IMG/VR virus record: IMGVR_UViG_3300014204_000169
Coordinates: 10,119-74,118 of that record
From: a virus
Lineage: Duplodnaviria > Caudoviricetes
Length of the DNA: 64,000 nt
Strand: one strand, 5' to 3'
Shown: positions 1 to 64,000 of the stretch, piece by piece
How positions within the stretch are numbered: the first letter of the stretch is position 1
Layout: each line of letters starts with the position of its first letter
Position numbers and translations under genes: made by a program
Notes under the pieces: generated by a model
Seen by the model: only the letters and a program-made list of their open reading frames with translations
What the model was told of the DNA's origin: nothing
Database searches by the model: none

Positions 1-3000
1 GAATCAGCTTCTAAAAAAATTGCAAATACTTCTTGGGCACAAGCAAGATTATTAAAAGCTCAAGCAGAGAGTATGGGGATTGATTTAACTTCAAAAGGAT
101 TAGGTTCAATTAGTCCTAATAATCTTTCTTACTACTCAAATGAGGTTCAAAAAATAATTGATCAATACAAAAAGGAGCATCCTGAGTTAGTAAAAGTAAA
201 TAAGGAACTGAAGAATCAAGTAAATTGGATGAATGAGATTGCTGCTGCTGAAGCTAGGGCTTCAGGGGAATCTGAGAAATTAATACCTTATTTAACTAAA
301 TTAAATGAAGCAAAAACTAATTTAGAAGCTGCAATTAAATCAGCAAGAGAAGGTGTTGGGGATACTAATGAATTAAAAACATTATCTCAAGCAGTAAATT
401 TAGCACAGAAGAAATATGATTTGATGAAAGAGCAAGAAAAACTTAGTAAAAAAATATATAAGATGGAAAACTTATCTGCCCCTATTAGTTCTATTAGAAC
501 TATGCCTAAAGGAACTAAAGAAGGATTAGAACATCTTAGAACTCAAGGTTATCTTGGTCCAGTAGCAGAAGTACTTACTAAAAATGCTTTTGCTGCAATG
601 GATGATTGGATTAAGCAAGTTAGAGAAGCAAGAGAGATGGAGTTAGAGTTAAAGAAGAATATTATTTCTGAACAAATGAAACAATTAGATTTTGAAAAAG
701 AAATGTATCAACAGGGTATGATTTTTACTGCTGAAGAACAAAAAGCAGCAGAAATTAAAAAAGTTAATTTTGATTCAATTAATGAAAAGAAAAAATTAGA
801 ATTGCAATATCAATTAACTTCATTAGACTTGGAAAAAGAATTAGAGAATATAAGAGAACATTCTAAAACTGGTTCTGGATTCTTACCATTTTTACTTGCT
901 CAAGCCCAAGCAAAAGCTAAATTAGCAAAAACTATTTTAGAACAAGAAACAAGTAATCTTGAGATTGCTAGAATAAAGAAAACTATTGATATTGAACAAG
1001 AGTATCGTAAAGAAAAAATAATGGAACTGCGTGAAATCGCAGGAACACTATTTGATGATCTTCTTTCTGGTAATGAAAATATTTGGTCTAATTTACTAAA
1101 TTCCTTTAAGAGAGTTTTTTTAAAACCAGCAAAAGAAGCTTTTCAAAAATACTTTCAATCTCTTTTATTTAATTCAGATGGTTCAGCAAAAGGGGAAGAT
1201 AGTACTAGTACCAGCGGGGGTCTTACTGGATTTATTAGTGGACTTGTTCCAATGGCAACAAAGGTAATGGGACCATTAGCGTTAGCAGGACAAGCTGCTT
1301 TTTCTAAAAATCCTTATCTAAAAACTGCTGGTATAGTAGGTATGGCGGGTGCAGGATTAGCAGCAGCTAGTACACTTATGGTTGGTGGGGGTACTACTTT
1401 ATTCACTACTGTTTTAGCAGCAGCAGCGCCAATGATTGCGGCAGCGGCGGGGGCTGCTATGGCTGGTGTAGCAATTGCAAATGCTGTTATTGGGGATGAT
1501 AGTTATGAATCAGGATCAAAACAAATAAAAAAGGCTTTTGGTGTAAATTTTTCAGCAAAGCAATATCAAGCATTTGTTAATTCATTAGGTATGAATGAAG
1601 CTCAAGCTTGGGGAGTTAGAGCAGATCTTAATTGGTCTCCTAAAATGATTTCTGAAAATATTGCTCCATTAGCTAAAGATGCAGGAAAAATTGATCAGTT
1701 ATTAAAAGCTGCTGAAACAGCATCCGCTGGACATAATGTAGTAAATATGCGTCCTGCAATTGAGATAGGAATACTTACTAATAATTGGGATGCTCTTAAT
1801 AAAGTATTCAAAGAAACTGCTGGTTTTGCAAATCTTATTGAAAGTAAGATTCCTGGCATCACTGAAAAGTTAATGGCTGGAGAAGAAGTATTAAAACCAT
1901 ATGAACAATTAATTGTAAACTTTAATAATTTAGGTACATCTATTAAAGAAACAATTACATCTTCATCAAAGATGTATGACACATTTTTAAGTACAGGAGA
2001 TATTACAGAAAAACTTAGTAAACAAATTCAAGATGTTAATGGTAATCTTGCAGCTTTTGAGAAATTATCTAGTCTTACTAAAATAAGTACTCAGTTTTCT
2101 GAACTTATTACTAATTTTATTAATACTGGAGAGGTCACAGAAGAACTTACAAAGATTATTACTGATTTTGGAGGTAGTGTTGAGTTATTAAGTCAGATGG
2201 ATATTGCTAGTGGGATGTCTGAATCTGTTACTTTTATATCCAATCTTGTTTCTGAGTTAAAGAATCTTGCTCCTGAACTTGACCCAATTAATCAGATTCT
2301 TTCTGGAAAAATTGGTACTGAAGCTTTAGCTGCATTAAATCAAGCTGGGCTTGATGTAGAACAAATTACTAAACTCACTAATGCAATTAATGCTAAAAAT
2401 GTTCTAGGTGATTTAGAAGCTTTCCCTAGAATGACTGAAGATATTAAGAATGCTTTATTAAATTATGGTGGGGATGCTGGAGCTACAGCAATAGCAAATT
2501 ACGCTAATGGTATTAATACTATTACAACAGACTTATTAAAATCTGTTACAGAATCAATGAATGCTGCATTTTATGCAGAACTTAGTAATGTTACTTCCTA
2601 TTTAACTGAAACACAAACAACAATGGAAGATACATTAAAAACATTAATGGAAAACATTAATGCTCAATTTACTACTGTTGGAGATGCTATTACAGCATCG
2701 ATTGATATTGCTAAACAAGCTGTTGTTGATGCAATAAATCAAATAATATTGAGTATTGCAACTACTGAAGGGGGAGCAGCGGCAGCAACATCTTCTTTAT
2801 GGAATGGGGCTATCGCTGTAGGATCAACTAATACAACTTCAGAAAGCACTACATGGCCAGGATATACAATGTCTCCTGAAGAACAAGCTCAAAAACTTTG
2901 GCAGATTCAGAATAATATACCTACTCTTGCTGAAGGTGGTTCTGTTGCAAAAACTGGTTGGGCGGTGGTTCATGAAGGTGAAACATATAGTGGTATTGGG

Positions 3001-3129
3001 AAATCTTTAGGAAAAGGTGATATACATATACACTTAGAAGGTGCTACAATAAATGGTGTAGATGATTTAGATAATAAGTTAATGTTATCAGCAAAGAGAT
3101 TACGAAATCGTGGATTTGCTTTTGCCTAG
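1..3129 (+). CDS. Tail tape measure protein (5' end outside window)
   Basis: Frame open from base 1; long helical Ala/Leu/Lys-rich protein with glycine-rich hydrophobic middle segment and C-terminal IPTLAEGGSV...AVVHEGE motif typical of TMPs; followed by tail-tip gene. Confidence 0.85.
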   Translation, partial: ESASKKIANTSWAQARLLKAQAESMGIDLTSKGLGSISPNNLSYYSNEVQKIIDQYKKEHPELVKVNKELKNQVNWMNEIAAAEARASGESEKLIPYLTKLNEAKTNLEAAIKSAREGVGDTNELKTLSQAVNLAQKKYDLMKEQEKLSKKIYKMENLSAPISSIRTMPKGTKEGLEHLRTQGYLGPVAEVLTKNAFAAMDDWIKQVREAREMELELKKNIISEQMKQLDFEKEMYQQGMIFTAEEQKAAEIKKVNFDSINEKKKLELQYQLTSLDLEKELENIREHSKTGSGFLPFLLAQAQAKAKLAKTILEQETSNLEIARIKKTIDIEQEYRKEKIMELREIAGTLFDDLLSGNENIWSNLLNSFKRVFLKPAKEAFQKYFQSLLFNSDGSAKGEDSTSTSGGLTGFISGLVPMATKVMGPLALAGQAAFSKNPYLKTAGIVGMAGAGLAAASTLMVGGGTTLFTTVLAAAAPMIAAAAGAAMAGVAIANAVIGDDSYESGSKQIKKAFGVNFSAKQYQAFVNSLGMNEAQAWGVRADLNWSPKMISENIAPLAKDAGKIDQLLKAAETASAGHNVVNMRPAIEIGILTNNWDALNKVFKETAGFANLIESKIPGITEKLMAGEEVLKPYEQLIVNFNNLGTSIKETITSSSKMYDTFLSTGDITEKLSKQIQDVNGNLAAFEKLSSLTKISTQFSELITNFINTGEVTEELTKIITDFGGSVELLSQMDIASGMSESVTFISNLVSELKNLAPELDPINQILSGKIGTEALAALNQAGLDVEQITKLTNAINAKNVLGDLEAFPRMTEDIKNALLNYGGDAGATAIANYANGINTITTDLLKSVTESMNAAFYAELSNVTSYLTETQTTMEDTLKTLMENINAQFTTVGDAITASIDIAKQAVVDAINQIILSIATTEGGAAAATSSLWNGAIAVGSTNTTSESTTWPGYTMSPEEQAQKLWQIQNNIPTLAEGGSVAKTGWAVVHEGETYSGIGKSLGKGDIHIHLEGATINGVDDLDNKLMLSAKRLRNRGFAFA

Positions 3130-3138
3130 GATTTAATA

Positions 3139-6100
3139 ATGACTTGGACTCCAGATACAACACCAGCATCTAGGACATTCCCACTATCTGCAAGTGATGA
3201 ACAATTTCCACTTTTACAGGGTGAAGCTAGTGTTGTACCTACACCTACAGGAGCTGAAGCATTAAAATTTTATGTTGATTGGAATAACAATTTAATGTTT
3301 GACCACGCATATTCAGATATTTCTGATTATGTACAAAGTGTGTCTTGGTCAAGAGGTAGATCTGGACCATCTCCTCAATATGATGTTGCTGGAACAATGC
3401 AACTTAACTTATTAAATAATACTGCTATTTTTTCATCTTTTAATACAGCAAGTCCTATTTATGGATTAATACTTCCAAATTTAAGAGTAAAAATTACTTC
3501 TCAAATTGGCAGCGGTTCAATAGAAATAGTAGGTTTATTTAAACTTGATTCTATTATTCCAGAAACAGGCTCTTGTAAAAATGAAGGAACAGCAACACTT
3601 GCTGCATCTGGAGTTATTTCAAGATTTACTAAAGGTAAAGTAAATATAGCTTTACTTAATAATGCTCCTACAGGAAATCATGTTGAATTAATCCTAGATA
3701 ACTATGGTGTCCATCCTTCCGAAAGAATCGTTGACACCGGATTATCTACTATTAGCAAATGGTGGTTTTCTAAAGATAGTTCATACCTTGAAGAACTTCA
3801 TGCAATTCAAGATGCTGAATGTGGTCGTTTTAGAGGAGATCGAAAAGGAAATCATGTTTTTGATGATCGAGCACATTCATATAATCCACCAAATGATGTT
3901 GCTCAAGTAATATATGGTACTAGTGGGCTTGGTTTATGGGATGTTCAGCAATTTGATCCTATTGAAAATATTTATAATTATGCTACTGGAAAAGTAAAAG
4001 TATTTAATACATCAGAAGATATGATCCTTACTATAATTTCTGATGTTGTTGGTAATTCAGGTGGAACTCCTCCTATTGTTCCTGGCAATGGTACTTTAAC
4101 AGTTAGATTTGAATGTCCTTGTCCAGGCAGTCCTTCAGAAGTTAAATCAGTAGATTCTTGGAGTATTGTAGATCTTGAAGGAAACACTAATGCTGCTGGT
4201 ACTGGAACGGATATTACTACAGATTTATCTTATGTAAAAACTGAATATGGTCAAAAATTAGAAGTAGTAATAACAAATGTAAATGCATTACCTGCACATC
4301 TTATTATGTTAAGAGCCCATGGTGTTGCAATTGTTGAAGGTGATGTTACAGAAATTATATCTCAAGATACAACTAGTATTACCAAATATGGGAAAAGAGA
4401 ATTTCCAAATATTAATGAGTGGGACACTAATCTTGAAGATGCTCAAGCTAGATTAGATTATTTAATTGCAATTAATAAAGACCCAAAACCAAGAATACAG
4501 TTTACTGTTAAAGGTGTTAATGAACTCCATCTAGTAGAAATGCAAAAGCGTGAACTAGGAGATAGGATACATGTTAATGCATCTCTTGCGGCTACTGGAT
4601 TAGCCATTGATGCTGATTTTATTGTTGATCATATACAACACGCAAAAGACATAAATTCTTTACATACAATGCAAATTACATGTACTTTTGCTCCAACAAT
4701 ACAACTTGCAAAGAGTGGGACGGCTTACACGCCGAAAGTAATTCCAACGGCTACGAAAGATTTCGTCCTTCCCGGAGTGCCTATTTCGTTGAGCGTTGAG
4801 GCTTCTACCTATAAATTTGTAGTACAGTGGGTAGATCCAGCAACGGGCAATCTGACCCTATTCGATAGTTGCGTGCAATTCGCCTCTGATGCCGCATTCA
4901 CGACCGATGTAACTACTCGTTATGGATTAGGATATGTAAATAATTACACGTTCTCTTTTCCGCTTAAGACTCGCTATTTCCGGGTGGCGATGTACAACGA
5001 GTCTGGACTAGCCTCAAATGCCACTACAAAGGCCGCTATCGTTGCGGCTGGCGGAAGCGCTGATTATGGCTGGGGTCCATTTTGCGCCGTATCTGCGGCT
5101 GTCACAACTGCAGGACTGCTTACAACAGACGTTGCCCCAAACACACTTGTTCCTGCAAATATGAACATTTCCCTGCGCGGGTGGACGCTCACTTGCGTAT
5201 TTTCTGCCCTCGACGCCGATACCGTTCAATGGACATCGGGAACTTTCACGGCAGCGGATGGTACGCCATATGCCATAAGCGCTGGAAATACCGGCAATAT
5301 GGCAGCGGTAACGCATATCTACCTAGACATAAATATATCTACCACGGCATTGCAAGTGACCGCTAATGCAGCGTTATCATTGGGGATTGGTCGCGTACAG
5401 GTTGGGGTGGCTATCAATCAAACATCCCGCGCAACATTCCAAATATTTGGAGGTGTTGGCGGAATTAATCTGCTTGTTGACAATTTGGTCTCCAATGCGG
5501 CCAGCGTGAACGAATTCATATCAAATACGGCCCAAATTGCCAATCTTATTGTGACCAATGCCAAAATAGCGGGACTATCTGTTGATAAGCTGACCGCAGG
5601 GGCGATCACTTCGAAAATCATAGAACTTGTTCTTGATCCAGGTAATGGTGACGCTGCAATCCGATTAGGAAAGACGGATTTTGGAGACGATACGCATTCA
5701 GGATTCATTCTTGGGGCCGACGATAGCGATAGCGATAAGCCAAAGTTTGAAATCGGTTCAAGCGCTACAAAGAAGCTTTCTTATGACGGCACTGACCTTG
5801 CGCTTATCGGTGGAACTGTTACCGGCGGGACGCTCCAGACGGAAGCAACTGCATCCAGGGGTTTTAAAATAACATCGACTGGCTTCAAGGGATACGATGG
5901 GGCTGGCGCTGAAACGCTGTCTTATACAGCATTAACTGGAGCAATCGCGCTCACGGGCTCAATAACCGCAGGAGTAGGATCAACTATTGCAGCGACGTAT
6001 TTATCGGGCCAGATCATTGATAGTCAGATTGCACCGGGAGCCGTTCTTGGTAGCTCTGGAGATCCTGCGGCACCAGATTTTACAGCAGGAACCCTTACTC

Positions 6101-6387
6101 TTGATAATAACTGGCACGATTTAGATCTTAGCGCAATCGTTCCTGCTGGGCGAAATTTTGTTCTTCTTCGCGTCTTTCTTTCCGCCGTATCGACGACGAC
6201 TAAATCGGTGTTCTTTCGAAAAAATGGCAACTCTAATGCCGTAAATGTCAGCAGTATATCGGCCTATGCCGGACAAGTTGCCTATGCGGATGTGATCGTT
6301 CCAATGGACGCCAATCGCGTGATTGAATACGAGGGCGTGGCAAGTCCATATGCTCTTGAAATAACCATTGGTGGATGGTTCACGTAG
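3139..6387 (+). CDS. Tail tip/hub protein fused to receptor-binding or central fibre region
   Basis: 1082 aa directly after TMP; N-half resembles distal tail/hub (WSRGR...GTMQLNLLN); C-half has FN3-like segment and IANLIVTNAKIAGLSVDKLTAG repeat seen in J-like tail proteins. Confidence 0.7.
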   Translation: MTWTPDTTPASRTFPLSASDEQFPLLQGEASVVPTPTGAEALKFYVDWNNNLMFDHAYSDISDYVQSVSWSRGRSGPSPQYDVAGTMQLNLLNNTAIFSSFNTASPIYGLILPNLRVKITSQIGSGSIEIVGLFKLDSIIPETGSCKNEGTATLAASGVISRFTKGKVNIALLNNAPTGNHVELILDNYGVHPSERIVDTGLSTISKWWFSKDSSYLEELHAIQDAECGRFRGDRKGNHVFDDRAHSYNPPNDVAQVIYGTSGLGLWDVQQFDPIENIYNYATGKVKVFNTSEDMILTIISDVVGNSGGTPPIVPGNGTLTVRFECPCPGSPSEVKSVDSWSIVDLEGNTNAAGTGTDITTDLSYVKTEYGQKLEVVITNVNALPAHLIMLRAHGVAIVEGDVTEIISQDTTSITKYGKREFPNINEWDTNLEDAQARLDYLIAINKDPKPRIQFTVKGVNELHLVEMQKRELGDRIHVNASLAATGLAIDADFIVDHIQHAKDINSLHTMQITCTFAPTIQLAKSGTAYTPKVIPTATKDFVLPGVPISLSVEASTYKFVVQWVDPATGNLTLFDSCVQFASDAAFTTDVTTRYGLGYVNNYTFSFPLKTRYFRVAMYNESGLASNATTKAAIVAAGGSADYGWGPFCAVSAAVTTAGLLTTDVAPNTLVPANMNISLRGWTLTCVFSALDADTVQWTSGTFTAADGTPYAISAGNTGNMAAVTHIYLDINISTTALQVTANAALSLGIGRVQVGVAINQTSRATFQIFGGVGGINLLVDNLVSNAASVNEFISNTAQIANLIVTNAKIAGLSVDKLTAGAITSKIIELVLDPGNGDAAIRLGKTDFGDDTHSGFILGADDSDSDKPKFEIGSSATKKLSYDGTDLALIGGTVTGGTLQTEATASRGFKITSTGFKGYDGAGAETLSYTALTGAIALTGSITAGVGSTIAATYLSGQIIDSQIAPGAVLGSSGDPAAPDFTAGTLTLDNNWHDLDLSAIVPAGRNFVLLRVFLSAVSTTTKSVFFRKNGNSNAVNVSSISAYAGQVAYADVIVPMDANRVIEYEGVASPYALEITIGGWFT

Positions 6388-6394
6388 AGGAATT

Positions 6395-6691
6395 ATGAAT
6401 CTTATAGCTAAAGCACAAGACGTGACCATTGGATATATCGAAATTGACAAGTGGACACTAGATCCTATTACGGAACGCCTCGTCATTTGGTTTCATCTAA
6501 ATGACCATCCGATGCTTCATTATCAATTTGGTCAAGATATTACGGCATCTCTTTGGGTTCTACTCGATGTTGACGCCGGAGTCGATGAAGACAAAGCAAA
6601 AGCTTTGTTAATGGCAGAAAAACCTGCATTTAATTCGGTCGCGCGGGTTGCTTGGAATTTACCGTTTCTTATTGTTGAGCAGGAAAATTGA
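6395..6691 (+). CDS. Hypothetical protein (tail-associated)
   Basis: ATG 6395 with AGAGG RBS; inside tail module. Confidence 0.65.
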   Translation: MNLIAKAQDVTIGYIEIDKWTLDPITERLVIWFHLNDHPMLHYQFGQDITASLWVLLDVDAGVDEDKAKALLMAEKPAFNSVARVAWNLPFLIVEQEN

Positions 6692-6710
6692 CAGAAAATA
6701 GGAGAGCACT

Positions 6711-6965
6711 ATGGTTGAACGCAGAAATCACTGGTTGCAGACACTCTCAATAGTAATCCCGCTAATCATCACGATGATCGGGCTGGCGATAGCATCGGAA
6801 CACAGAATCACTATCGTTGAATCCGGTCTGGATGAGATGAAGACTCAAACAGCCATACTTGCCAGCAATCAAAGAATGGTCATGGAAACACTGGCAAAAA
6901 CCACGGCAATCATGGACATGATGTGCAAGAGACACGAAATAGAGGACACGAAAGGAAAACAATGA
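6711..6965 (+). CDS. Single-TM coiled-coil membrane protein (holin/XhlA-like)
   Basis: AGGAG RBS; N-terminal TM helix then heptad pattern. Confidence 0.55.
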   Translation: MVERRNHWLQTLSIVIPLIITMIGLAIASEHRITIVESGLDEMKTQTAILASNQRMVMETLAKTTAIMDMMCKRHEIEDTKGKQ

Positions 6966-7138
6966 TGCTATCAAAAATATTATTAATCTCCTCTCTTCTA
7001 TTCGGCATGGGTGGATGGTTAGCAACATTGCCGACTTGGAGCGCTGCATTGACTCCGATATCCATGGGCGGGTTATTTATGATTATTGGCTCCATAGTTG
7101 CTGCATGGCTTGGGCAATCTCCAATTAAAGGAAAGTAG
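6962..7138 (+). CDS. Small two-TM holin-like protein
   Basis: ATGATG dual start overlapping upstream stop; two hydrophobic helices and basic C-terminus (PIKGK). Confidence 0.55.
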   Translation: MMLSKILLISSLLFGMGGWLATLPTWSAALTPISMGGLFMIIGSIVAAWLGQSPIKGK

Positions 7139-7143
7139 GATTT

Positions 7144-9060
7144 ATGGCTACTCGCTGGACAACGCTGACATATACCACTGCAAGCATTGCCGGGGGCGCA
7201 AGCCTTGTGGTTAATAGCACAATTGATGCCGTGAATATTGACATTGGCCTGATTGCCGTGCTGCCAAGCATAAATTCCGGCACAACCACGTTCGGGATCT
7301 ACAAAAAAGATACCTGTCTTGATTCGGACATGGTTTACCAGAACACAAAGGCAGGAAACCTCTATGACCCCATCCAGCGAGTAGGAGTAACCGAGCAAAC
7401 AAGAAACGAGTTCCTTGTTGCTAAATATGACGACCTGGATGACTCACTGGAACTACATCAGAAGATCACAAACACGAGCGCGGATGCAAAGACCTATGAC
7501 GTAACGATTGTCTATGTCAAGCATTCAGGAGCTGCTGAAACGAAATCTTTGACGGATTTCGGAGCAGACGCAACTGGAACGGTATCGGCTATTGCGGCAT
7601 TGACGGCGGCAGAGGCAGCCGGGAAACCGCTGATTATTCCTTATGGGACATTTTTGATTGACGCTAACATTACGGTGTCAATTTCCTTAATCTACGAAGG
7701 CGGTCAATTTACCTCCTCCAACGCCTCAACCCTAACCCTCACCGACCCTCAGAGTGGGAGTGATGGGCAGAGGTTTGCGGGGAATCTTGTAGTGGCTGGG
7801 CTCACAAAATCAAACCCAGTTTATTTTGGCGCAGTAGGTAATGGCACAACGGACGATAGCGATAAATTGATTTCCGCATTTTCTTCCGTGGCCACCAATC
7901 ATGGCTTAGTGGAATTCGGGATAGGAATATTTCGGATTACCAAAACCATCCCCACAACTAGTATTGTTCTTCGGGGTATTAACAGAGATAAGAGTCTGAT
8001 CTTTTTGGATTATGATGGCATTGGACTAAGCGTAACAACAGATTCATTATCTCATTTCGAAATGCATGATATCGGCATCGTTGGCGAAACAGCATTTACG
8101 TGGTCGTTGACTACAGCAACAAGCCAGATAGCAGTGCTGATATCTAAGAGCCACAAATACATAATTGATAATTGCCAGTTTTATCATCTCGATAATGCGA
8201 TCAAAGTATATGGCGGTGCGTATTATGGGGTTATCGAAAAAAACCTCTTCCGGACAAATAAGACAAGCATGTACCTGTTAGCGGATACTCCCACAGCAGA
8301 TGCCCCTAATGAAGCCAATATAATTTTCAATCAATTCGATATTTGGCCGGTATCCGTCGGAGGTCCAGGATCGACAATTGGGCTAAAGGTTGAAGGCGTA
8401 GCAGCCGCGGCATCCTCACATATCAAGGTTATTGGAAATGGTTTTGAAAATGTTGCTAATGGCATTAAGCTAATTAATGCATGGGATGGGCAGTATTTAG
8501 ATAACAGGTTTGAAGATGTAACAACATATATGGATGGCGACTCGGGAAGTGGGCGGAATTTCGTCCAGAGCAGCATGTATTTAGATCCATTAAAGTTTGT
8601 ATTTGCAATTGGAGCCCCAAATACAAATACTTTAGTTATTCCTAACAGCAATGGAATCTATGACTGGAAAGGAACTGTCAATGGGGAAACAATCCCTCCT
8701 GTCGTAACTGCGTGGACTCCGGTTGACGCGAGCGGCGCATCGCTTGTATTTACAGCTGCAGTGGGAACTTATTTAAAGACAGGCAAACAAGTGACTGCGT
8801 TTTTTTCGGTGGAGTACCCATCTACAGCTGATGCATCTCAAGCAAAAATAGGGGGATTGCCTTTTGCAGCAGTTGCCGGAGCGACCAATCCGTCTGGGGG
8901 GAATCTAGGCATTAACACCTCGGCCTCTCTTGTGTGTCCAATTGTCGTCGGGGGTGAGTCGTATTTTATAATGTCAGTAATATCCACCAGCAGTGGCGCA
9001 ACAAACGCAAATTTAAGTACTGCTTATTTGCGCGGATTTGTGACATACTTTACAAATTAA
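7144..9060 (+). CDS. Tailspike / depolymerase with pectate-lyase-3-like beta-helix
   Basis: Two entry motifs (SLTDFGADATG; NPVYFGAVGNGTTDDS), Asn/Gly-rich beta-helix pattern, C-terminal WTPVDASG...GTYLKTGKQV fibre-tip domain. Confidence 0.8.
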   Translation: MATRWTTLTYTTASIAGGASLVVNSTIDAVNIDIGLIAVLPSINSGTTTFGIYKKDTCLDSDMVYQNTKAGNLYDPIQRVGVTEQTRNEFLVAKYDDLDDSLELHQKITNTSADAKTYDVTIVYVKHSGAAETKSLTDFGADATGTVSAIAALTAAEAAGKPLIIPYGTFLIDANITVSISLIYEGGQFTSSNASTLTLTDPQSGSDGQRFAGNLVVAGLTKSNPVYFGAVGNGTTDDSDKLISAFSSVATNHGLVEFGIGIFRITKTIPTTSIVLRGINRDKSLIFLDYDGIGLSVTTDSLSHFEMHDIGIVGETAFTWSLTTATSQIAVLISKSHKYIIDNCQFYHLDNAIKVYGGAYYGVIEKNLFRTNKTSMYLLADTPTADAPNEANIIFNQFDIWPVSVGGPGSTIGLKVEGVAAAASSHIKVIGNGFENVANGIKLINAWDGQYLDNRFEDVTTYMDGDSGSGRNFVQSSMYLDPLKFVFAIGAPNTNTLVIPNSNGIYDWKGTVNGETIPPVVTAWTPVDASGASLVFTAAVGTYLKTGKQVTAFFSVEYPSTADASQAKIGGLPFAAVAGATNPSGGNLGINTSASLVCPIVVGGESYFIMSVISTSSGATNANLSTAYLRGFVTYFTN

Positions 9061-9073
9061 AAGAGAGGATTTT

Positions 9074-9205
9074 ATGAAAAGAATTTTGATGACTTCAGTT
9101 TTATGTTTGTTCTACTGCGGATGTTCACTTCAGGCCCAAGAACGTTTTGCTTTCAGCGGTGCCGGATACTATGACGGTGCGCAGGTTAAAGGTGTACTCA
9201 ATTAA
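9074..9205 (+). pseudogene. 43-aa signal-peptide/lipoprotein-like ORF, probably truncated
   Basis: GAGAGG RBS; MKRILMTSVLCLFYCGCSLQAQ... ends where GC content drops back to genome level. Confidence 0.45.
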
Positions 9206-9244
9206 TTATTTTATAGTAAAATAAAGTATTCAAGGAGAATAATC

Positions 9245-9622
9245 ATGTTTTTTCTGTTTAGTTGGTTTTCAAAAATAGGTAAAACTTTTGTAAAGCTATT
9301 CAAATCAAAAGCTGCTCAAAATGTATTAAGTATTATTATTGAGCAAATTCTACCAGAAGCTAAACCCATTGTAGCTTCTATTCAAAATATTATTAATCAC
9401 CCATCTCAAGCAACGATTGCAGATATTATTAATCTATATACTAATTTTAAACAAGAGATTGGTTATATAGAAGATAATGCTCAAGCAAAAGGAAATGCTG
9501 TATTAAATTTAGCGGTTATGTTACTAAAAGATAAACTTGGCCCTAAATATAATACACCATTGCTTGAAGCAGCTATTACTACTGCTTTAGCTTCTTTACG
9601 TGCTGAGTTAGGTTTGAAGTAG
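9245..9622 (+). CDS. Hypothetical protein (last gene of late unit; possible lysis accessory)
   Basis: AAGGAG RBS; amphipathic N-terminus; followed by terminator. Confidence 0.7.
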   Translation: MFFLFSWFSKIGKTFVKLFKSKAAQNVLSIIIEQILPEAKPIVASIQNIINHPSQATIADIINLYTNFKQEIGYIEDNAQAKGNAVLNLAVMLLKDKLGPKYNTPLLEAAITTALASLRAELGLK

Positions 9623-9645
9623 CTTTTATTTACATTCTAAGCAAA

Positions 9646-31905: not shown

Positions 31906-31907
31906 AA

Positions 31908-34466: not shown

Positions 34467-34745
34467 TTAAAATGGTGTATCCTCTTTTGTTGGTTGAAGT
34501 ATTTTATTACAATGACTGCATAGTAATCTTAATTCTCCAGCTAGAAATTCTTTCTCATATCTTTTAATTCGTAAATGACTTGCTGTTAATCTTGGGGTTT
34601 TAGGCCAATGTCTTCCATATGGATGATGGGACTCTAATTTTTCTGTAGCCCCACAATTACTACATTTATTTCCCATATCTTCTTTTAGTTTAGTAAATCT
34701 ACGTTCACACATTCTGCGAACTCTAACATTCCAAGGAAGACACAT
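34467..34745 (-). CDS. HNH endonuclease
   Basis: CSNCG...LESHH...LRLLCSHCN. Confidence 0.75.
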   Translation of the reverse strand: MCLPWNVRVRRMCERRFTKLKEDMGNKCSNCGATEKLESHHPYGRHWPKTPRLTASHLRIKRYEKEFLAGELRLLCSHCNKILQPTKEDTPF

Positions 34746-34760
34746 GTTTAGTAATCCCTT

Positions 34761-35975
34761 TTAGTAATTATTTTGTTTTCCAGTTTGAAAATCATATACA
34801 TGGTTCTTTTTAGTAAACTTAACAAAAAGATCGAATGTTTTACTATTTGGCTCAAAACTTCCAGGACCAATATCTGTGAAATGAGCTTCATTAATAATCC
34901 AAGTAACATACAATTTTAGTAAGCTGAAAGGAGAATGGATTTGAGCAGGGGTTCTCAAATCTTTTCCTGGCAGTTTAAATCGACTAGGAACGATTTTCTT
35001 TTGTTTTTCGACAAAATACTCGAATAGGTCAATTACTTTTGATTGTAGGGCATCTGAGAGGTCATGGTAGGCATATCTGAGAGGCCGCAAAACGTCTTTT
35101 TGGAAGTTTTCAGTAAGATCCCCACCATAACACTTACTAAATACAGAATTAATACGGGCGGAAATATCAGGTTTGGAATCAGGAGAATTGGATTTCTTCT
35201 TAATAAAAATATTTTCAGGGAAAACTCCAGGCCAATTACAGGTAATTGAATTGTCAATTGCTTGTAAACAGGAATCAACAGGAAATTTTTGCAATTTGGT
35301 TGCTAATCTTTTTATAGCATCATTAGTAAATGGGATTAGTTTACTATTTTTAGTACAGGATGTTCTTCTAAATTCATAAAAATCTTCTATTGCTTTACAA
35401 AACTCAGAATCATTTTTATATTCAGAAGAAAACATGTCTTTGAATTCCTGAAAACTAAAAATTTTCTCTAATACATTATTTTGTTCTTTATTGTTTTTAG
35501 TCTTTATATTGTTTTTATTATTATGAGCTTGAAATTCTGAAGCTCCAGAGCTTGAAATTTTCGAGTTCTTGAGCTTGAAATTCTGAAGCTTTGGAAGAAG
35601 GTCAGTTTCTTCTGCTAATTGATCTGTATTTAGTATGTAATACTCTTTATACGGGAGTCCAACTTTCTTAATTTTTAGTAAACCTGATTCAATTAATGTT
35701 TTCTTATATTTACGTATTGCATGATCTGATAAACCGACACACTCAGCTAATTGTTTTTCATGTGAAAAAAAGAAACCCCCAAATTTCAATTTATTTATAG
35801 AATCATAATACCCTAATTTACTTACTAAAACAGAGATATATGCAGCAAGATTAAAACCATAAACTTGTATTAAGTTTTTATTTATCTGAAAAAAAGCATC
35901 TTTATTATATGCTGCAAGGATAACTTTTCTTGAGAATGATTCTTGTTCTGGTTTTTCAAGTTTAGTACGTTTCAT
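34761..35975 (-). CDS. Replication initiator / replisome organizer (lambda O-like architecture)
   Basis: N-terminal wHTH (LAECVGLSDHAIRKYKKTLIESGLL), Asn/Lys linker encoding repeats, C-terminal FYEFRR...AIDNSITCNWPGVF domain. Confidence 0.75.
   Translation of the reverse strand: MKRTKLEKPEQESFSRKVILAAYNKDAFFQINKNLIQVYGFNLAAYISVLVSKLGYYDSINKLKFGGFFFSHEKQLAECVGLSDHAIRKYKKTLIESGLLKIKKVGLPYKEYYILNTDQLAEETDLLPKLQNFKLKNSKISSSGASEFQAHNNKNNIKTKNNKEQNNVLEKIFSFQEFKDMFSSEYKNDSEFCKAIEDFYEFRRTSCTKNSKLIPFTNDAIKRLATKLQKFPVDSCLQAIDNSITCNWPGVFPENIFIKKKSNSPDSKPDISARINSVFSKCYGGDLTENFQKDVLRPLRYAYHDLSDALQSKVIDLFEYFVEKQKKIVPSRFKLPGKDLRTPAQIHSPFSLLKLYVTWIINEAHFTDIGPGSFEPNSKTFDLFVKFTKKNHVYDFQTGKQNNY
35461..35590. 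promoter_or_regulatory. Putative replication origin: three iterons plus AT-rich tract
   Basis: GAGCTTGAAATT at 35525, 35548, 35571 (23-bp period; copies 1 and 3 identical over 20 bp) next to a very AT-rich run. Confidence 0.75.
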
Positions 35976-40625: not shown

Positions 40626-40634
40626 GATTGAACC

Positions 40635-50677: not shown

Positions 50678-50723
50678 TGTGGCTCTCTTTCATATTACTA
50701 AATGTTAAATTTGCCTTTAATTT

Positions 50724-50763
50724 TATAACACATGTTATAGCAGGTGTTATAACACATGTTATA
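50724..50763. promoter_or_regulatory. Tandem palindromic operator-like sites
   Basis: TATAACACATGTTATA at 50724-50739 and 50748-50763. Confidence 0.55.
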
Positions 50764-51116
50764 TAAACCAAAATTTACTAATAATTTCATAACAATTACA
50801 TTAATAGGCTCATAAACAAACAAGAACAATCAACACTAAAGCTTATAAGACTATTAATAGGATAGTCAGAGTATTTAATAGGTAGAGTAGAGGTATTAAA
50901 GAGTATAACTACTCTACCTGTATATGTAATGTATGGTTTATGTGTGTTTTGCTCCTTATATTGTGTGTTATTTTATTAATTTTACGCTTTGAGCCATGCT
51001 CATTACGTTGTTTTTATTAATAATACGTTGTTTTGCGTTATCCGACCAACGCTATTCTTAGTAAACTATTCTTACTAAAAATAGATTACTAAATAAAAAG
51101 GTTAAAAATTACTAAA

Positions 51117-51335
51117 CTATTTGTAAACCGTGGTAAAAACAGTTCTATCCGGTTTATCCTGATAAATGTTAGTAAAAAATACTTCAATTCAAATCATACG
51201 ATTGGCAAATTGTTCCCCAATACCATAACGCAATAGGCTCTTAATTGATTTATACTCGCTTCTGAGCATTCGATTATTTATGCCTACTTCATCATATGTG
51301 CCATCGGCGTTTTGTCTTGTGATAATTGCCTTCAT
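51117..51335 (-). pseudogene. 72-codon ORF with one in-frame TGA
   Basis: GGGAGGGG RBS; MKAIITRQ...NRMI*IEVFFTNIYQ...; TGA at 51189-51191. Confidence 0.55.
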
Positions 51336-51365
51336 TGTTTTCCCCTCCCAAAATTACTAAACTAA

Positions 51366-51596
51366 TTAGGCATAATATTCTGATATCCTGCAATTGGTAG
51401 CATCTACCCAACGTATGCTAGTTCTCTCATGGGATAACCATGGTGGAATCTCAACAAGTGCAAACAATATGCCTTTTTGAGTCTTTACCTGGTAAACTTT
51501 TAGTTTTTCTTCTTGCATTGTTCCTGATATCGGTCGGAACAAAAAAAGGTTTCCAGATTGTTTTAGTAATTTATTAATAGCTTTCGCTGTTTTCAT
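51366..51596 (-). CDS. Hypothetical early protein
   Basis: ORF track; GGAGGT RBS. Confidence 0.7.
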   Translation of the reverse strand: MKTAKAINKLLKQSGNLFLFRPISGTMQEEKLKVYQVKTQKGILFALVEIPPWLSHERTSIRWVDATNCRISEYYA

Positions 51597-51615
51597 TTCT
51601 TGACCTCCAAAATTA

Positions 51616-51774
51616 CTAAACTATATGCAGTATTCCCAATTCCAGCATTTTGGAAAAGGATCGTAGGGACATGAAAAACAAGGCACAATTAAAGCCAGAA
51701 GAGCAATAGACTTTATCTTCTGATACTGTAAGGCCATAAATGGTGCAATCGTTCTTATATCTAGCCGCAAACAT
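51616..51774 (-). CDS. Hypothetical 52-aa early protein
   Basis: Read by eye: MFAARYKNDCTIYG...; AAGGAGA RBS. Confidence 0.55.
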   Translation of the reverse strand: MFAARYKNDCTIYGLTVSEDKVYCSSGFNCALFFMSLRSFSKMLELGILHIV

Positions 51775-51999
51775 GGTTTATCTCCTTTGATTTAGTTTAT
51801 TAAAAAAGCACTCTATAGAATGCACAAGCTTTATAGCGTATGCACTCTAACAATGCTTTTCAGTTCATATAACCTCGCTTTTTAGTTTACTAAACAATCA
51901 AGTCTATACAGGTTAAAGTCGCATAATATCACCTCCAATTAGTTTAATAAATTAATTCAACATATATGCGCTCAAATTACTAAGCGCATAAATGCGGAA

Positions 52000-52176
52000 T
52001 TAATTATTAATATAATAATCGTACGCTATTGACGCTGTCTTAACTGATATATTGCATTTTTTTGCAGCAATGGCAATTTCTGATTTTTTAGGATGAAATG
52101 GTTTATGGTTTATAGGCATTTCTTGTGCAACGGAACGCCCTTGATACCATTTTTTTCTTTCTTCTATTGTAGGCAT
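52000..52176 (-). CDS. First early gene, 58 aa, possible HTH
   Basis: Read by eye: ...IAIAAKKCNISVKTASIAYDY; GAGGA RBS. Confidence 0.55.
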   Translation of the reverse strand: MPTIEERKKWYQGRSVAQEMPINHKPFHPKKSEIAIAAKKCNISVKTASIAYDYYINN

Positions 52177-52225
52177 TGTCTTATCCTCTCTTTATCTATC
52201 GTCATTAACTCTCAATCACATTATT

Positions 52226-52254
52226 ATAATAATTGATTTATATAATTGTGTCAA
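52226..52254 (-). promoter_or_regulatory. Strong sigma70-type early promoter
   Basis: TTGACA-17-TATTAT with AT-rich upstream element; heads leftward early block. Confidence 0.8.
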
Positions 52255-52412
52255 TACTTATTTCATTAAATAATGCATTTTTATTTGATTAATTTATTAA
52301 ATTAATTTGGTCCTAATCGCTTGACTTCTTTCCTGTCCTATGAGTCATTATTTCATTAAATGAAACATTGTCACGTTCACAAGACATATCATTTAATACA
52401 ATATTGCATATC

Positions 52413-52483
52413 ATCCCATTTACTAAACTAATATGCAAACGTGCTTTCAGCACGCATACGCACATATCCCATTTACTAAACTA
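52413..52483. repeat. 18-bp direct repeat
   Basis: ATCCCATTTACTAAACTA at 52413-52430 and 52466-52483. Confidence 0.85.
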
Positions 52484-52987
52484 CCACAGAACATGACACT
52501 AAACATACCTGCATACATACAGTAGGCATAGGTAGTTCATAGCCTATTAGTTTACTAAATCAAATTTACTAAAATAATACACAACAAGACATTCATTATA
52601 CTGCATTCATAGTGTGGAACCCTATTCTGTTATGTTGCAATCTCACCCCACCCCCCGGCCTATTGGCGGATGGGGTTGTGTGGAGGGGTGCCATGACGTC
52701 CGAAATATTACTAATTAAAATTTACTAAAAATACTAATATCGTTTACTAAACTAAATTGAATAATCGTGCAGGACACACAGAATATAAAAGCGCTGATTA
52801 TAAACAACGTGATTTCACTACACAGTACAAAACACTAATAACGTGTGGAACGCGATAGTATTAATATATATTCAAAAAATATTACTAAAAATTTTATTAA
52901 GAAAACACAAAAATAGGTTACTAAAACAACAATAACCCTTTACTATCTCTACTAGTGTATTTACTGTTGTTAATTTTTAGTATTTTA

Positions 52988-56968: not shown

Positions 56969-56994
56969 AATTGAGTACTTTATAAAGGGGTGTT

Positions 56995-58437: not shown

Positions 58438-58442
58438 TTATT

Positions 58443-59894: not shown

Positions 59895-59919
59895 CTAATA
59901 AATTTGGAGGAAATATATT

Positions 59920-60411: not shown

Positions 60412-60429
60412 TGAAAGGAATTTATAAAT

Positions 60430-61512: not shown

Positions 61513-61558
61513 TTTAATAATAAGGAACTAATCAAGTTCCCAAATTAGGAGCATTATT

Positions 61559-61987
61559 ATGAAACGGAAATCAGCCCGTAGTGAAAAAGAAGTTGTGGAA
61601 GAAGTAGTAGAGATTGAAAAAGATGAAGTTGTACAACCTAAAGTTGTTGTAAAAAGTGTAAAAAGTAAAGATTCTCATGATGGTAAAATTAGATATAAAA
61701 ATAATGGGGGTCTTTTTTACCCTTTGAGTGGACCACCAGTAAAATCTGGTGAAATATTTTGGTCTAGGCCAGGGGATATTCCTTCATCTGTAAAAGATAT
61801 TATTAAAGCTTTAGATCCTATAAAAGAAACCCCTCCTCTAGTGGTAGCAAATCCAGAATATAAAATAACCCCTTGCAATTATGAAGAGGATAAATTTAAT
61901 ATTGTTGATTGCCGTGGAAAAATATTAAATGAAACTGCTTTAGCTGAAGATGCGGCAAAAGTAATGTTGGCCCGTCTTCTGGAGTAA
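61559..61987 (+). CDS. Hypothetical head-associated protein
   Basis: ORF track; AGGAG RBS; follows MCP. Confidence 0.7.
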   Translation: MKRKSARSEKEVVEEVVEIEKDEVVQPKVVVKSVKSKDSHDGKIRYKNNGGLFYPLSGPPVKSGEIFWSRPGDIPSSVKDIIKALDPIKETPPLVVANPEYKITPCNYEEDKFNIVDCRGKILNETALAEDAAKVMLARLLE

Positions 61988-61991
61988 TATT

Positions 61992-62732
61992 ATGCTTTGG
62001 ACTGCTCCAGAAATTTGGAAAGATGGTGAGTGTTTTATTATTGGTGGTGGTCCAAGCATCCCTCAACAATTTAATATCCCAAATGATATTGTTTCTCAGG
62101 TAATGGCAGGAAAACTTCCTGCCTCTACCTATTCCCCTTATTTATCTACAATACATAATAAACATATTATTGGTGTAAATAATGCATATACTTTGGGGAG
62201 TTGGGTAGATGTTTGTTTTTTTGGAGATAATTCTTGGTACTTAGTACATAGATTAGGTATTGCCAAATTTGCAGGGTTAAAAGTTACTTGTTGTAATAGG
62301 TTTGCATATAGATCTATAAAAGATATGGAAGGTATTAAATATCTTGCTAAAGATAAAGAATGCACACAGGGGATTAGTAAAAATAAATCTGCTGTAGCTT
62401 GGAATAATAATAGTGGCGCTGCTGCTATAAGTCTTGCTATTCATTTTGGAGTAAAAAGAATTATATTACTTGGCTTTGATATGACTCTTAGTAAAAATCA
62501 AATGAGTCATTGGTTTGGGACACATAATAGAGAAAAAAAGGTAGTACCCCCATTTTTCCGCCATTTGCGTGGATTTCCTATCATCGCAAAACATGCAAAA
62601 GAGCGTGGGGTAGAAATATTAAACTGTAGTTCAACCAGTGCTATAAAAGACTTCCCAATAATGACAGTTGAAGAGGCACTAAATGATCCCAACAAATCAA
62701 CAATTACTAAATCTGAAGCAATCATTAGTTAA
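61992..62732 (+). CDS. CstII/Maf/MptE-like (DUF115-type) nucleotide-sugar transferase candidate 1
   Basis: FIIGGGPS, IIGVNNAY, VCFFGD, NSGAAAISLAIHFGVKRIILLGFDM. Confidence 0.65.
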   Translation: MLWTAPEIWKDGECFIIGGGPSIPQQFNIPNDIVSQVMAGKLPASTYSPYLSTIHNKHIIGVNNAYTLGSWVDVCFFGDNSWYLVHRLGIAKFAGLKVTCCNRFAYRSIKDMEGIKYLAKDKECTQGISKNKSAVAWNNNSGAAAISLAIHFGVKRIILLGFDMTLSKNQMSHWFGTHNREKKVVPPFFRHLRGFPIIAKHAKERGVEILNCSSTSAIKDFPIMTVEEALNDPNKSTITKSEAIIS

Positions 62733-63348
62733 TAATAAGTTACCAAAGGTATTTGAAGGACAAACCGTATTTATTTATGGTGGAGGACCATCTCTACCTA
62801 ATATAGTAAAAGGGAGGAATATTAATCACCCAATAATAGGCGTAAATCATGCAATATTGCTTGGGGTTAGGATTGATATTTGTTTCTTTGGTGATTCCCG
62901 ATTTTATTGGATTATGAAGGATGATTTTATTAAATATGATATTATTAAAATAAGTTGTGATCGTAGGTCTGGAAAAACAACAGATCTACCAATCCCTGAT
63001 TCTGATACTTCAATTATTAAAATACCCTATAGTAATGGGCATGGGGTTCATATAGATAAAAATAAAATTAACTTTAATTCCTCTTCTGGTGGAGCAGCTA
63101 CAGATTTAGCAATTCATCTTGGGGCATCAAGAATAATTTTAGTTGGGTTTGATATGCGTTGGGTCGATGGAGAATCTAATTGGCATCCACATGCTTTTAG
63201 AAAAACAAATAAACCTTATACTAATTTTATTGTTCCTTTTGATTCCCTTGCAAGACAAGCAAAATTCCGTAATGTTGAAATACTAAATGCAACACCAAAT
63301 AGTTTACTCCCTTATTTTAAGTTCACTAATTTTGAGGAATACTTATGA
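62683..63348 (+). CDS. CstII/Maf/MptE-like (DUF115-type) nucleotide-sugar transferase candidate 2
   Basis: FIYGGGPS, IIGVNHA, ICFFGD, SSGGAATDLAIHLGASRIILVGFDM. Confidence 0.65.
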   Translation: MIPTNQQLLNLKQSLVNNKLPKVFEGQTVFIYGGGPSLPNIVKGRNINHPIIGVNHAILLGVRIDICFFGDSRFYWIMKDDFIKYDIIKISCDRRSGKTTDLPIPDSDTSIIKIPYSNGHGVHIDKNKINFNSSSGGAATDLAIHLGASRIILVGFDMRWVDGESNWHPHAFRKTNKPYTNFIVPFDSLARQAKFRNVEILNATPNSLLPYFKFTNFEEYL

Positions 63349-64000
63349 ACGTAATGACAGAAATAGAAACAATTAAGTATATTTCTGATAATAAATGTTC
63401 TGTTGCCAGGTATGGTGATGGGGAATTTAAACTTTGTATTGGGGCTAGTGCTAAGTCTCAAAAAGCCGATAGGAATATGGCGGAACAAATGAGATTTTTA
63501 TTAAGAGATACCAATAATAAAAATTTACTTGTTTGTATTCCAAGAATTTATGAACCAAGAAGTGATTGGCCTACTCAAGAAAAATGGAACTTTTGGAAAC
63601 AGTTTGCACAACAGTCAAGGTACGTTTCTTTACTTAATACTAGGAAAACCTATGGATCTTCATTTATAACCCGTCCTGATTCATCTGGGCAGAGTTCTGT
63701 GACCTTTTATGAGTCAATTAAAGCTCTTTGGAGTGGAAAAAATGTTTTATTAATAAAAGGTGAAGGAACTGGTTTTGATAAAGATAAATCTATTTTTAGT
63801 ACAGCAAGACGATATGAAACTTTATTAGGTCCAGAAAGAGATTCTTTTTCTATGATTGATAGTTTAGTACATAAAGCAATTTATAGAACTAATGAGGACA
63901 CAGTTATAGTTATCTCTTTAGGACCAACTGCAACATTACTTGCTGAACGGCTATCTAAATTTAGACAAACTTTGGATCTTGGGCATCTTGGGATGTTTTA
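63345..64000 (+). CDS. GT-D fold glycosyltransferase (DUF1792-like); runs off window end
   Basis: Translated by eye (not in track): SVARYGDGEF, LLVCIP, SSFITRPD, LWSGKNVLLIKGE, ISLGPTATLLA, LDLGH. Confidence 0.85.
   Translation, partial: MNVMTEIETIKYISDNKCSVARYGDGEFKLCIGASAKSQKADRNMAEQMRFLLRDTNNKNLLVCIPRIYEPRSDWPTQEKWNFWKQFAQQSRYVSLLNTRKTYGSSFITRPDSSGQSSVTFYESIKALWSGKNVLLIKGEGTGFDKDKSIFSTARRYETLLGPERDSFSMIDSLVHKAIYRTNEDTVIVISLGPTATLLAERLSKFRQTLDLGHLGMF

Follow-up and report, generated by a model that had tools for sequence, protein, structure and literature searches.

The exact near-palindrome TTA(C/G)TAA is enriched throughout a low-GC tailed phage genome and conserved in cultured Vibrio phages

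The genome of this phage repeats one word, TTA(C/G)TAA (TTASTAA), which is its own reverse complement except at the centre base. The question raised by the locus is whether these copies are selected and, if so, what reads them. The window, the whole 64,000-nt stretch of DNA that was analysed, contains 212 sites, divided on the + strand between TTACTAA (n = 108) and TTAGTAA (n = 104). The whole 74,118-bp phage genome contains 234 sites, approximately 86% of them intragenic (2.85 per kb in coding DNA versus 7.2 per kb in non-coding DNA). Site density is approximately 1 per 270–310 bp, or 3–4 per kb. Two features describe the distribution across the window:

1..64000, both orientations: dispersed exact heptamer TTA(C/G)TAA, from word count and codon-preserving nulls
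3700..9500, no strand: tail-fibre cassette with 0 sites; GC 43%; approximately 9 sites expected at the genome's enrichment factor

The counts given in the first-pass annotation are exact, with 21 sites in 50690–52925 and 6 in 40200–40690 (mononucleotide expectations of 1.15 and 0.30). The order-2 Markov expectation for the word is 29. The annotation had proposed a codon-preserving shuffle as the refuting test, and the enrichment survives it. When synonymous codons are shuffled with the proteins kept, the two sense-strand orientations are expected 26.8±4.5 and 21.6±4.0 times and are observed 111 and 92 times. When codon order is shuffled within genes, the expectations for the same counts are 15.4 and 14.7. 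Across the codon-preserving shuffles the word is enriched 4–7x (z of 17–25), and its two orientations rank first and second among all 7-mers in both nulls. Both orientations are enriched approximately 4.2x on the sense strand, and the suggested control 7-mers stay at 1–2x (TTATTAA 1.5x, TTAATAA 1.8x, TTCATAA 1.0x). The enrichment of TTASTAA in this phage is confirmed. An explanation through off-frame stop codons is rejected, as a single word heads the k-mer lists and stop-rich k-mers generally do not.

The same word occurs 294 times in Vibrio phage MAR10 and 300 times in Vibrio phage SSP002 (both Mardecavirus, 50% GC), approximately 29x expectation. Their coding DNA contains 214 and 210 sites, compared with 17.9±4.2 and 18.6±3.9 after a codon-level shuffle, and both orientations are enriched on the MAR10 sense strand (10x and 15x). 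In these phages the 19 distinct one-mismatch neighbours, TTA(A/T)TAA included, all occur at 0.5–2.5x, versus 29x for the word itself. MAR10 and SSP002 are 78% identical in nucleotide sequence, and 78% of their TTASTAA sites persist. Among aligned sites, 72% are identical and a further 6% are centre flips, compared with 24% when all 7-mers are counted and 33% for the AT-rich ones. Sites that differ at one position comprise 14 centre C/G flips and no changes to A or T, unlike the genome-wide pattern, in which C/G-to-A/T changes are 3x commoner. These comparisons support purifying selection on the word in the related, cultured phages. Sites in the Vibrio phages are spaced a little more evenly than expected at random (coefficient of variation 0.83–0.87 versus 0.99±0.06), and the largest gap is no more than 1.2 kb. 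In MAR10, 73% of sites are intragenic; as in this phage, intragenic sites occupy two reading frames and both orientations. The word also lies within 25 nt upstream of approximately 40 of approximately 101 MAR10 gene starts, either between the ribosome-binding site and ATG, where it forms the spacer, or immediately 5' of the ribosome-binding site.

In the literature searched, TTASTAA was found only as the yeast Yap1 site, and it goes unmentioned in papers on Mardecavirus genomes. The selected word in cultured Vibrio phages is new here and is described in none of this literature; the earlier remark that no described phage system matches it holds for the same literature.

A two-fold-symmetric reader of double-stranded DNA is the best fit to the word, because C and G can replace each other at the centre, the flanks are roughly mirrored and both sense-strand orientations are equally enriched. 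In all three genomes the flanks favour T 5' of the word and A 3' of it. Their mirror symmetry is approximate (chi-square p of 0.02–0.09), which weighs against this reading. The 7-mer shows no genome-wide orientation skew (108:104 in the window); adjacent sites point the same way at a frequency of 0.52–0.57 versus approximately 0.50 expected. The first-pass annotation had inferred a binding site for a dimeric protein, possibly with Chi- or KOPS-like polarity. The selected site stands and a two-fold-symmetric, probably dimeric reader fits best; the polarity does not stand, as the 7-mer is balanced and not co-oriented.

Orientation is instead a property of an extended 11-mer and of the early region, where the following features are found:

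50690..52925, + strand: motif-saturated early control region; 21 sites, 9.4 per kb
51058..51119, + strand: composite array of sites at 51058, 51072, 51086 and 51109, spaced 14, 14 and 23 bp; the last is the 11-mer
52708..52754, + strand: second composite array, three sites 14 and 22 bp apart (52708, 52722 and 52744), with the 11-mer as the third
51354..51364, + strand: 11-mer TTACTAAACTA, directly upstream of the ribosome-binding site of a small early gene (51189–51335, − strand)
51613..51623, + strand: 11-mer, upstream of the ribosome-binding site of gene 51366–51596 (− strand)
52226..52254, − strand: strong sigma-70-like predicted promoter of the leftward early genes; TTGACA, 17 bp, TATTAT; 11/12 matches
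34686..34922, + strand: cluster of five TTAGTAA sites and the single reverse 11-mer (34686)

The 11-mer is present on the + strand at all 11 positions first reported. It was said to have no reverse copy; one exists, at 34686. Eight of the 12 sites fall within 50.0–54.4 kb, and 11 of the 12 share one strand; they lie mostly between genes and on the sense strand of leftward genes (approximately 0.6 copies per strand are expected from 7-mer counts). In 50690..52925, 18 of the 21 sites are co-oriented, reading TTACTAA on the + strand and hence TTAGTAA in the sense direction of the leftward early genes. The two composite arrays have the same layout, and a further 14-bp-spaced pair is present at 52552/52566. 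The arrays at 52.4–52.9 kb lie upstream of the predicted promoter. The 11-mers at 51354 and 51613 sit 5' of ribosome-binding sites, as first described, and the genes concerned are on the − strand. Read on that strand, 51354..51364 gives TAGTTTAGTAA, followed by TTTT and then GGGAGG, and the copy at 51613..51623 overlaps the TAG stop codon of gene 51616–51774 (−). The cluster with the reverse copy is located at the 3' end of an O/DnaD-like replication initiator gene (34761–35975, −). The most plausible reading of the 11-mer is a local, oriented regulatory form of the word in the early region. No family is assigned in the profile scan to the small early proteins that adjoin the arrays.

The earlier suggestion to compare hosts and related phages separates the two: the word is enriched in MAR10 and SSP002 and depleted in both Vibrio genomes. 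The V. harveyi and V. diabolicus genomes contain 597 and 604 sites versus 1279 and 1167 for the reversed control word, or approximately 600 sites per 5.1–5.7 Mb and a depletion of approximately 2x relative to this composition-matched control. These counts support the conclusion that the word is not a host signal. For the phage of the window, 33% GC and strong GGAGG ribosome-binding sites are the sole host hints.

The word is patchy among phages. ZHS, R5C and Pan1, which have the most similar replication genes, contain 0–2 copies. The Edwardsiella phage ZHS has the replication genes closest to those of MAR10 (primase 31%, polymerase 38%, helicase 30%) and has 2 sites. The portal relatives L011 and L012 (60–65% identity; 43–45% GC) and L009 show no enrichment in their 8–12 kb. 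In IMG/VR, a stricter composite motif pattern identifies the MAR10 and SSP002 records as the sole cases of genome-wide enrichment; among the matches listed for two looser scans are chance occurrences in AT-rich contigs. Unrelated phage contigs carry local arrays of TTASTAA, and in one of them (G002, a different phage) contiguous TTAGTAA heptads in tandem fill the gene junctions.

Several known systems resemble parts of this pattern. Chi (RecBCD/AddAB) and KOPS/SRS (FtsK/SpoIIIE) are likewise short, exact, over-represented words that are dispersed in coding DNA and act through their density. They are strongly polar host words enriched in the host chromosome, whereas TTASTAA is symmetric and unskewed, lacks strand polarity relative to replication or packaging, is depleted in Vibrio and is approximately 10x denser (3–4 per kb). 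The uptake sequences USS/DUS and cyanobacterial HIP1, a palindrome whose function is still debated, are also genome-wide exact words found within genes. They belong to cellular genomes, and the two Vibrio genomes show no such enrichment; TTASTAA occurs in lytic-looking phages without an uptake or transformation context, and a cognate methyltransferase was not found. In the stoperators of cluster A mycobacteriophages and the operators of P1 C1 and phiC31, a phage protein binds many scattered copies, and the oriented, intergenic 11-mer resembles the stoperator layout. However, stoperators are asymmetric, oriented, intergenic 13-mers of temperate phages with approximately 25–35 copies per genome, and the 7-mer is symmetric, numbers 234–300 copies and lies mostly in genes (approximately 86% of the 234 here) of phages without visible lysogeny genes. 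Omega repressor (pSM19035) and MetJ/Arc-type ribbon-helix-helix proteins are small dimers that bind 7–8-bp units, direct or inverted, cooperatively, and the contiguous heptads of contig G002 have exactly the omega-type form. The arrays in the window differ, being spaced 14 and 22–23 bp; no ribbon-helix-helix protein is identified, and the genome-wide spread is unparalleled. In yeast, the AP-1 (Yap1) response element TTACTAA/TTAGTAA is bound through overlapping TTA half-sites by a bZIP dimer (PMC6545440, PMC3111461), so a dimer can read TTASTAA. That element is a eukaryotic transcription factor site; here there is no bZIP protein and no evolutionary link.

The preferred explanation, which is held tentatively, is that TTASTAA is a selected, exact, two-fold-symmetric double-strand DNA site, probably read by a phage protein, and that early arrays are combined with dispersed marks. 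The recognition word would have a weak outer preference (TTTA-S-TAAA), and its reader would be a sequence-specific, probably dimeric factor, probably specified by the phage rather than the host. The close-set, co-oriented arrays at 50.7–53.0 kb may be high-occupancy nucleation or regulatory sites, and the approximately 200 dispersed copies, approximately 1 per 300 bp and mostly within codons, may mark the entire phage chromosome. The factor would act on phage DNA, with organisation, protection or loading as possible effects of binding, and would spare host DNA, where the word is approximately 35x sparser. The local arrays in unrelated phage contigs favour this explanation. The tail-fibre cassette bears on it in both directions: the absence of sites from this GC-rich, apparently foreign DNA, which looks recently acquired with marking yet to come, is in its favour, and against it the 5.9 kb without sites show that the phage has no strict need of full coverage. 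Two further observations weigh against it. Enzymes show all-or-none specificity more typically than regulators do. The two lineages have only a distantly related replication module in common, and the patchy occurrence of the word in them calls for gene transfer, convergence or repeated loss.

Comparison of this phage's proteins with those of MAR10 yields no reader, which also weighs against the preferred explanation. By BLASTP and phmmer, the two phages have seven proteins in common, all for replication or recombination: clamp loader, RecA, polymerase, primase, clamp, DnaB and SNF2 helicase. Among 137 other proteins, pooled scans with PHROG and Pfam find no Pfam or DNA-binding family in common. 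Both phages match the O/DnaD-like initiator PHROGs 428 and 186, in proteins that do not align. The sigma-like protein of this phage (Sigma70_r2) and DUF6744 are not found in MAR10, SSP002, R5C, Pan1 or ZHS; PDDEXK_15 also has no match in these five, and is uninformative since its profile matched nowhere. No integrase or CI-like repressor is matched among the proteins scanned, many of which are small and without a family. A ParB/KorB/Noc-type site was considered and failed: ParB_N and HTH_ParB domains are present in one MAR10 protein, for which no counterpart is found in this genome, and ZHS carries a homologue yet is without motif enrichment.

An enzyme target is a less probable alternative with some claim to attention. 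Here a nicking endonuclease or DNA-modifying enzyme of type II-like specificity would recognise the word, and sites would have gathered because nicks or marks are useful in clamp loading, replication, recombination or protection. An odd-length near-palindrome with a central S, as in CCSGG and GTSAC, and all-or-none specificity are what type II enzymes recognise, and TTASTAA has this form, with S alone at its centre and one-mismatch neighbours at approximately 1x. The centre C/G flips suit such a site. The MAR10 genome has genes for several HNH endonucleases and for one protein with a DNA methyltransferase annotation, and each of the two phages supplies its own sliding clamp and clamp loader. 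However, restriction sites are depleted in phages and TTASTAA is enriched 7–29x. No DNA methyltransferase family is found in this genome, whose methyltransferases are generic FkbM or Methyltransf_11/23 types in a glycosylation cluster; the match of MAR10 gp020 to the phage Dam family is below the cut-off (E 0.02), and no nuclease common to the two lineages is found. To our knowledge, no enzyme has TTASTAA specificity.

It is improbable that the word is a single-stranded replication signal, such as a preferred primase start or helicase-loading site on both strands at Okazaki-fragment spacing. One site per approximately 270–310 bp on both strands, evenly spaced without long gaps, would suit this role, as would the DnaG-type primases (25% identical) and DnaB-type helicases of both lineages. 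It leaves the near-palindrome, the centre C/G equivalence and the mirrored flanks unexplained, ZHS has only 2 sites despite its closeness to MAR10 in replication genes, and known DnaG primases read trinucleotides. An RNA element, UUA(C/G)UAA, acting as a translation enhancer, coupling element or binding site of a message-stabilising phage factor, is more doubtful still. The placement upstream of MAR10 gene starts and of early genes in this phage is consistent with it, as are the tandem heptads at the gene junctions of contig G002. Against this, most sites are intragenic, in two frames and both orientations, dyad symmetry and mirrored flanks would be coincidental, and short intergenic spacers are the cheapest location for a selected DNA word.

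A host signal copied by the phage (Chi-like or USS/DUS-like), or a decoy that titrates a host DNA-binding protein, is very unlikely. Some phages, such as P1, accumulate host Chi sites, and one phage genome holds half the sites of a whole Vibrio genome, which makes titration numerically possible; the word is nonetheless under-represented in both Vibrio genomes and without polarity, and the lineages probably infect very different hosts, given their wide GC difference (33% versus 50%). A neutral origin in codon or dipeptide usage, mutation bias or duplication could draw on the AT-rich genome and the mild enrichment of TTAATAA and TTATTAA (1.5–2x), and is already refuted as far as computation allows by the shortfall of both shuffles, the 29x recurrence at 50% GC, the unrelated site flanks and site conservation far above background.

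A broader proposal is unlikely, though not negligible: TTASTAA would be a 'self' word encoded by the virus, and the first counterpart of Chi that is dyad-symmetric and specified by a phage. By reading the word every approximately 300 bp, a phage factor could tell phage DNA from host DNA, so that phage DNA would be spared from the phage's own host-degrading nucleases or machinery would be loaded on phage DNA only. Related phages might use other signature palindromes, such as GTTTAAAC in R5C and Pan1.

Each of the genome-saturating exact words, such as Chi, KOPS, uptake sequences and HIP1, has brought a DNA-handling machine to light. TTASTAA is phage-owned and symmetric, and is maintained within hundreds of codons at protein-coding cost; it looks like a phage-specific mark on DNA. 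The word is found both in an uncultured phage of low GC and in about 40 cultured Vibrio phages under development for aquaculture biocontrol. Engineering of these phages is affected, as inserted DNA will be without the word. With MAR10 and SSP002 in culture, the reader and function can be found by standard experiments.

TTA(C/G)TAA (TTASTAA) occurs 212 times in the window and 234 times in the whole genome. Recounting gave the same 21 sites in 50690-52925 and the same 6 in 40200-40690 as the first-pass annotation. All 11 of its + strand positions for the extended 11-mer were also reproduced; it had not noticed the one reverse copy, at 34686. The annotation proposed comparing the enrichment with a codon-preserving null and with control 7-mers, and the enrichment survives both. 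Two nulls were used: synonymous codons were shuffled with all proteins retained, or codon order was shuffled inside genes. On the sense strand, TTACTAA is observed 111 times against 26.8±4.5 expected under the synonymous-codon shuffle, and TTAGTAA 92 times against 21.6±4.0; the codon-order shuffle predicts 15.4 and 14.7, respectively. Under both shuffles these two words take the top two places among all 7-mers, and control words reach only 1.0-1.8x. The in-gene sites use both frames that lack an in-frame stop, in both orientations. Site density is 2.5 times higher in non-coding than in coding DNA, and the tail-fibre cassette (3.7-9.5 kb, 43% GC) contains zero sites.

The phage record is 74,118 bp long with 33% GC and a 123-bp end overlap, and the window corresponds to its bases 10119-74118. 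The genes form two blocks:
53.36 kb, across the record ends, to 9.6 kb, + strand: late genes (terminase, portal, capsid, glycosylation cluster, tail genes)
53.2 kb down to 9.7 kb, - strand: about 100 early and replication genes

The early and replication block encodes an SNF2 helicase, a sigma-70 region 2 protein, a DnaG-type primase, an O/DnaD-like initiator, DnaB, a dCMP deaminase, a beta clamp, a split family A polymerase, a clamp loader, RecA, Mre11/SbcC-like nucleases and a divergent thymidylate-synthase homologue. The last of these (10551-11387, - strand; Pfam E 1e-11) co-occurs with the dCMP deaminase (31414-31941, - strand) and could be a pyrimidine hydroxymethylase; if so, it would point to modified bases. 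The sigma-70 protein (39396-39854, - strand) has 152 aa with region 2 only and is a candidate phage sigma factor. Inside the virion-gene block, a cluster of glycosyltransferase, sulfotransferase and SAM methyltransferase genes spans window 59920-64000 and G000:C1:168-5241, which immediately precedes the window; the methyltransferases are of FkbM and other SAM types. The Pfam matches are in keeping with virion glycosylation. Searches of this phage for tRNAs and Rfam families found neither.

In the early control region (50.7-53.0 kb), 18 of the 21 sites are co-oriented. Two composite arrays share a layout of site, 14 bp, site, 22-23 bp and 11-mer, the sense-strand reading of the 11-mer being TAGTTTAGTAA. 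The leftward early genes have a near-consensus sigma-70 promoter, with the arrays at 52.4-52.9 kb upstream of it. Two early genes are preceded by the 11-mer, then TTTT, then the ribosome-binding site. Within the AT-rich array region, 52640-52700 is a GC-rich island of complementary C-runs and G-runs; it has no Rfam match and might form a hairpin at an origin or encode a structured RNA.

Among the matches listed from an IMG/VR pattern scan for paired sites is a record identical to the cultured Vibrio phage vB_VpaS_MAR10 (78,751 bp, 49.7% GC). MAR10 contains 294 sites against about 10 expected, and the related Vibrio phage SSP002, also a Mardecavirus, contains 300. In coding DNA, the synonymous shuffle predicts 17.9±4.2 sites for MAR10 (214 observed) and 18.6±3.9 for SSP002 (210 observed). 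Specificity is all-or-none in these phages, with every one-mismatch neighbour, TTA(A/T)TAA included, at 0.5-2.5x. A weak flank preference, T 5' and A 3' of the word, is common to both phages and the window phage.

MAR10 and SSP002 are 77.7% identical across 65 kb. SSP002 has the identical word at 170 of the 236 MAR10 sites that could be aligned, against a background of 24% for all 7-mers and 33% for AT-rich 7-mers; each phage also has about 50 sites that the other lacks. Sites with exactly one difference include 14 in which the word is kept with its C/G centre flipped and none with a centre change to A/T; genome-wide, C/G-to-A/T changes are three times commoner than C/G flips. The sites are spaced a little more evenly than chance would give, with no gap above 1.2 kb. 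About 40% of MAR10 gene starts bear the word, either between the ribosome-binding site and the ATG or immediately 5' of the ribosome-binding site. We take this placement to reflect mainly the low cost of such positions, though an RNA role is conceivable for these copies. Separately, a 22-bp unit, GGTGCCGCCTTACTAACGAGCT, forms five tandem copies at the extreme right end of MAR10 (78630-78751; L132:38600-38751) and is not found in SSP002. MAR10 gp085 (L132:24999-25688) strongly matches the CBASS inhibitor family Acb3 (E 1e-79), and Tad2-like and Tad5 anti-Thoeris families were also matched among the pooled proteins.

The window phage and MAR10 have in common only distant replication and recombination proteins (22-32% identity), and their structural genes show no relationship. 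The replication genes most similar to those of MAR10 are in Edwardsiella phage ZHS (polymerase 38%, RecA 47%, primase 31%, ParB-like 32%), which despite this has only 2 sites. The word is absent from phages R5C and Pan1 and is not enriched in the 8-12 kb examined from the closest portal relatives of the window phage. It does not track replication genes. When IMG/VR was scanned in full for the composite array, the MAR10 and SSP002 records were the only ones to show genome-wide enrichment, and the genome-wide form seems limited to the window phage and Mardecavirus. In two Vibrio genomes of 5.1-5.7 Mb the word occurs about 600 times, half as often as a control word of matched composition, which speaks against a host signal. 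In a full-text literature search the word appeared only as the yeast Yap1 element, consistent with the earlier remark that no described phage system matches it; it goes unmentioned in the genome papers on Mardecavirus.

Local arrays occur elsewhere. In a 35-kb contig with 59% GC (IMGVR_UViG_3300033070_001131; G002, L257/L258), contiguous TTAGTAA heptads fill gene junctions and create stop codons in every frame on both strands. Examples, in which 2-5 units follow one another directly or inverted, are:
507-527: heptad run
2574-2594: heptad run
12698-12732: heptad run
16856-16883: heptad run

An unrelated contig with 51% GC (IMGVR_UViG_3300006802_010621) has eight sites in 160 bp of one intergenic region (L350:2834-2994), in the extended form TTACTAAGTA; this resembles an array of operators or iterons. 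A different, exact palindrome, GTTTAAAC, has 17 copies in Dinoroseobacter phage R5C (NC_041921) and 16 in Pseudanabaena phage Pan1 (ON968452), both 62% GC (loci L241-L248), with about 0.05 expected. Copies lie inside ORFs in 11 of 17 and 12 of 16 cases, some at orthologous positions. Among phages whose replication module is related, this may be another "signature palindrome".

The near-palindromic form, the interchangeable C/G centre, the roughly mirrored flanks, the equal sense-strand enrichment of both orientations, the exactness and the site conservation together argue that a two-fold-symmetric reader exerts selection on double-stranded DNA. The absence of the word as a host signal and from sister phages argues that this putative reader is specified by the phage. 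No DNA-binding family common to the window phage and MAR10 was found, and a search for DNA methyltransferases found none. Sigma was rejected as reader since the protein is missing from MAR10, with no counterpart in SSP002, R5C, Pan1 or ZHS either. ParB is missing from the window phage, whose initiator gives no alignment with that of MAR10. Because these searches did not identify the reader, the function is inferred. Candidate readers in Mardecavirus are the small proteins of the early genes, PadR-like gp016, ParB-like gp089 and gp057; in the window phage they are a 58-aa protein encoded first among the early genes (52000-52176), the initiator (34761-35975) and a helix-turn-helix protein (34019-34453).

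The reading ranked first, and favoured tentatively, is a binding site that marks the genome, with nucleation arrays. A target for a nicking or modifying enzyme ranks second and is unlikely, followed by a priming or loading signal, which is improbable. An action as an RNA element is less probable again, a host signal or decoy very doubtful, and a neutral by-product scarcely credible. Because the 7-mer is non-polar, the Chi/KOPS-like polarity suggested by the first-pass annotation falls away, and the likeness to Chi/KOPS is limited to that of a dense "self" word. As a genome-marking site, the dispersed copies would mark the phage genome and the arrays would act as nucleation sites.
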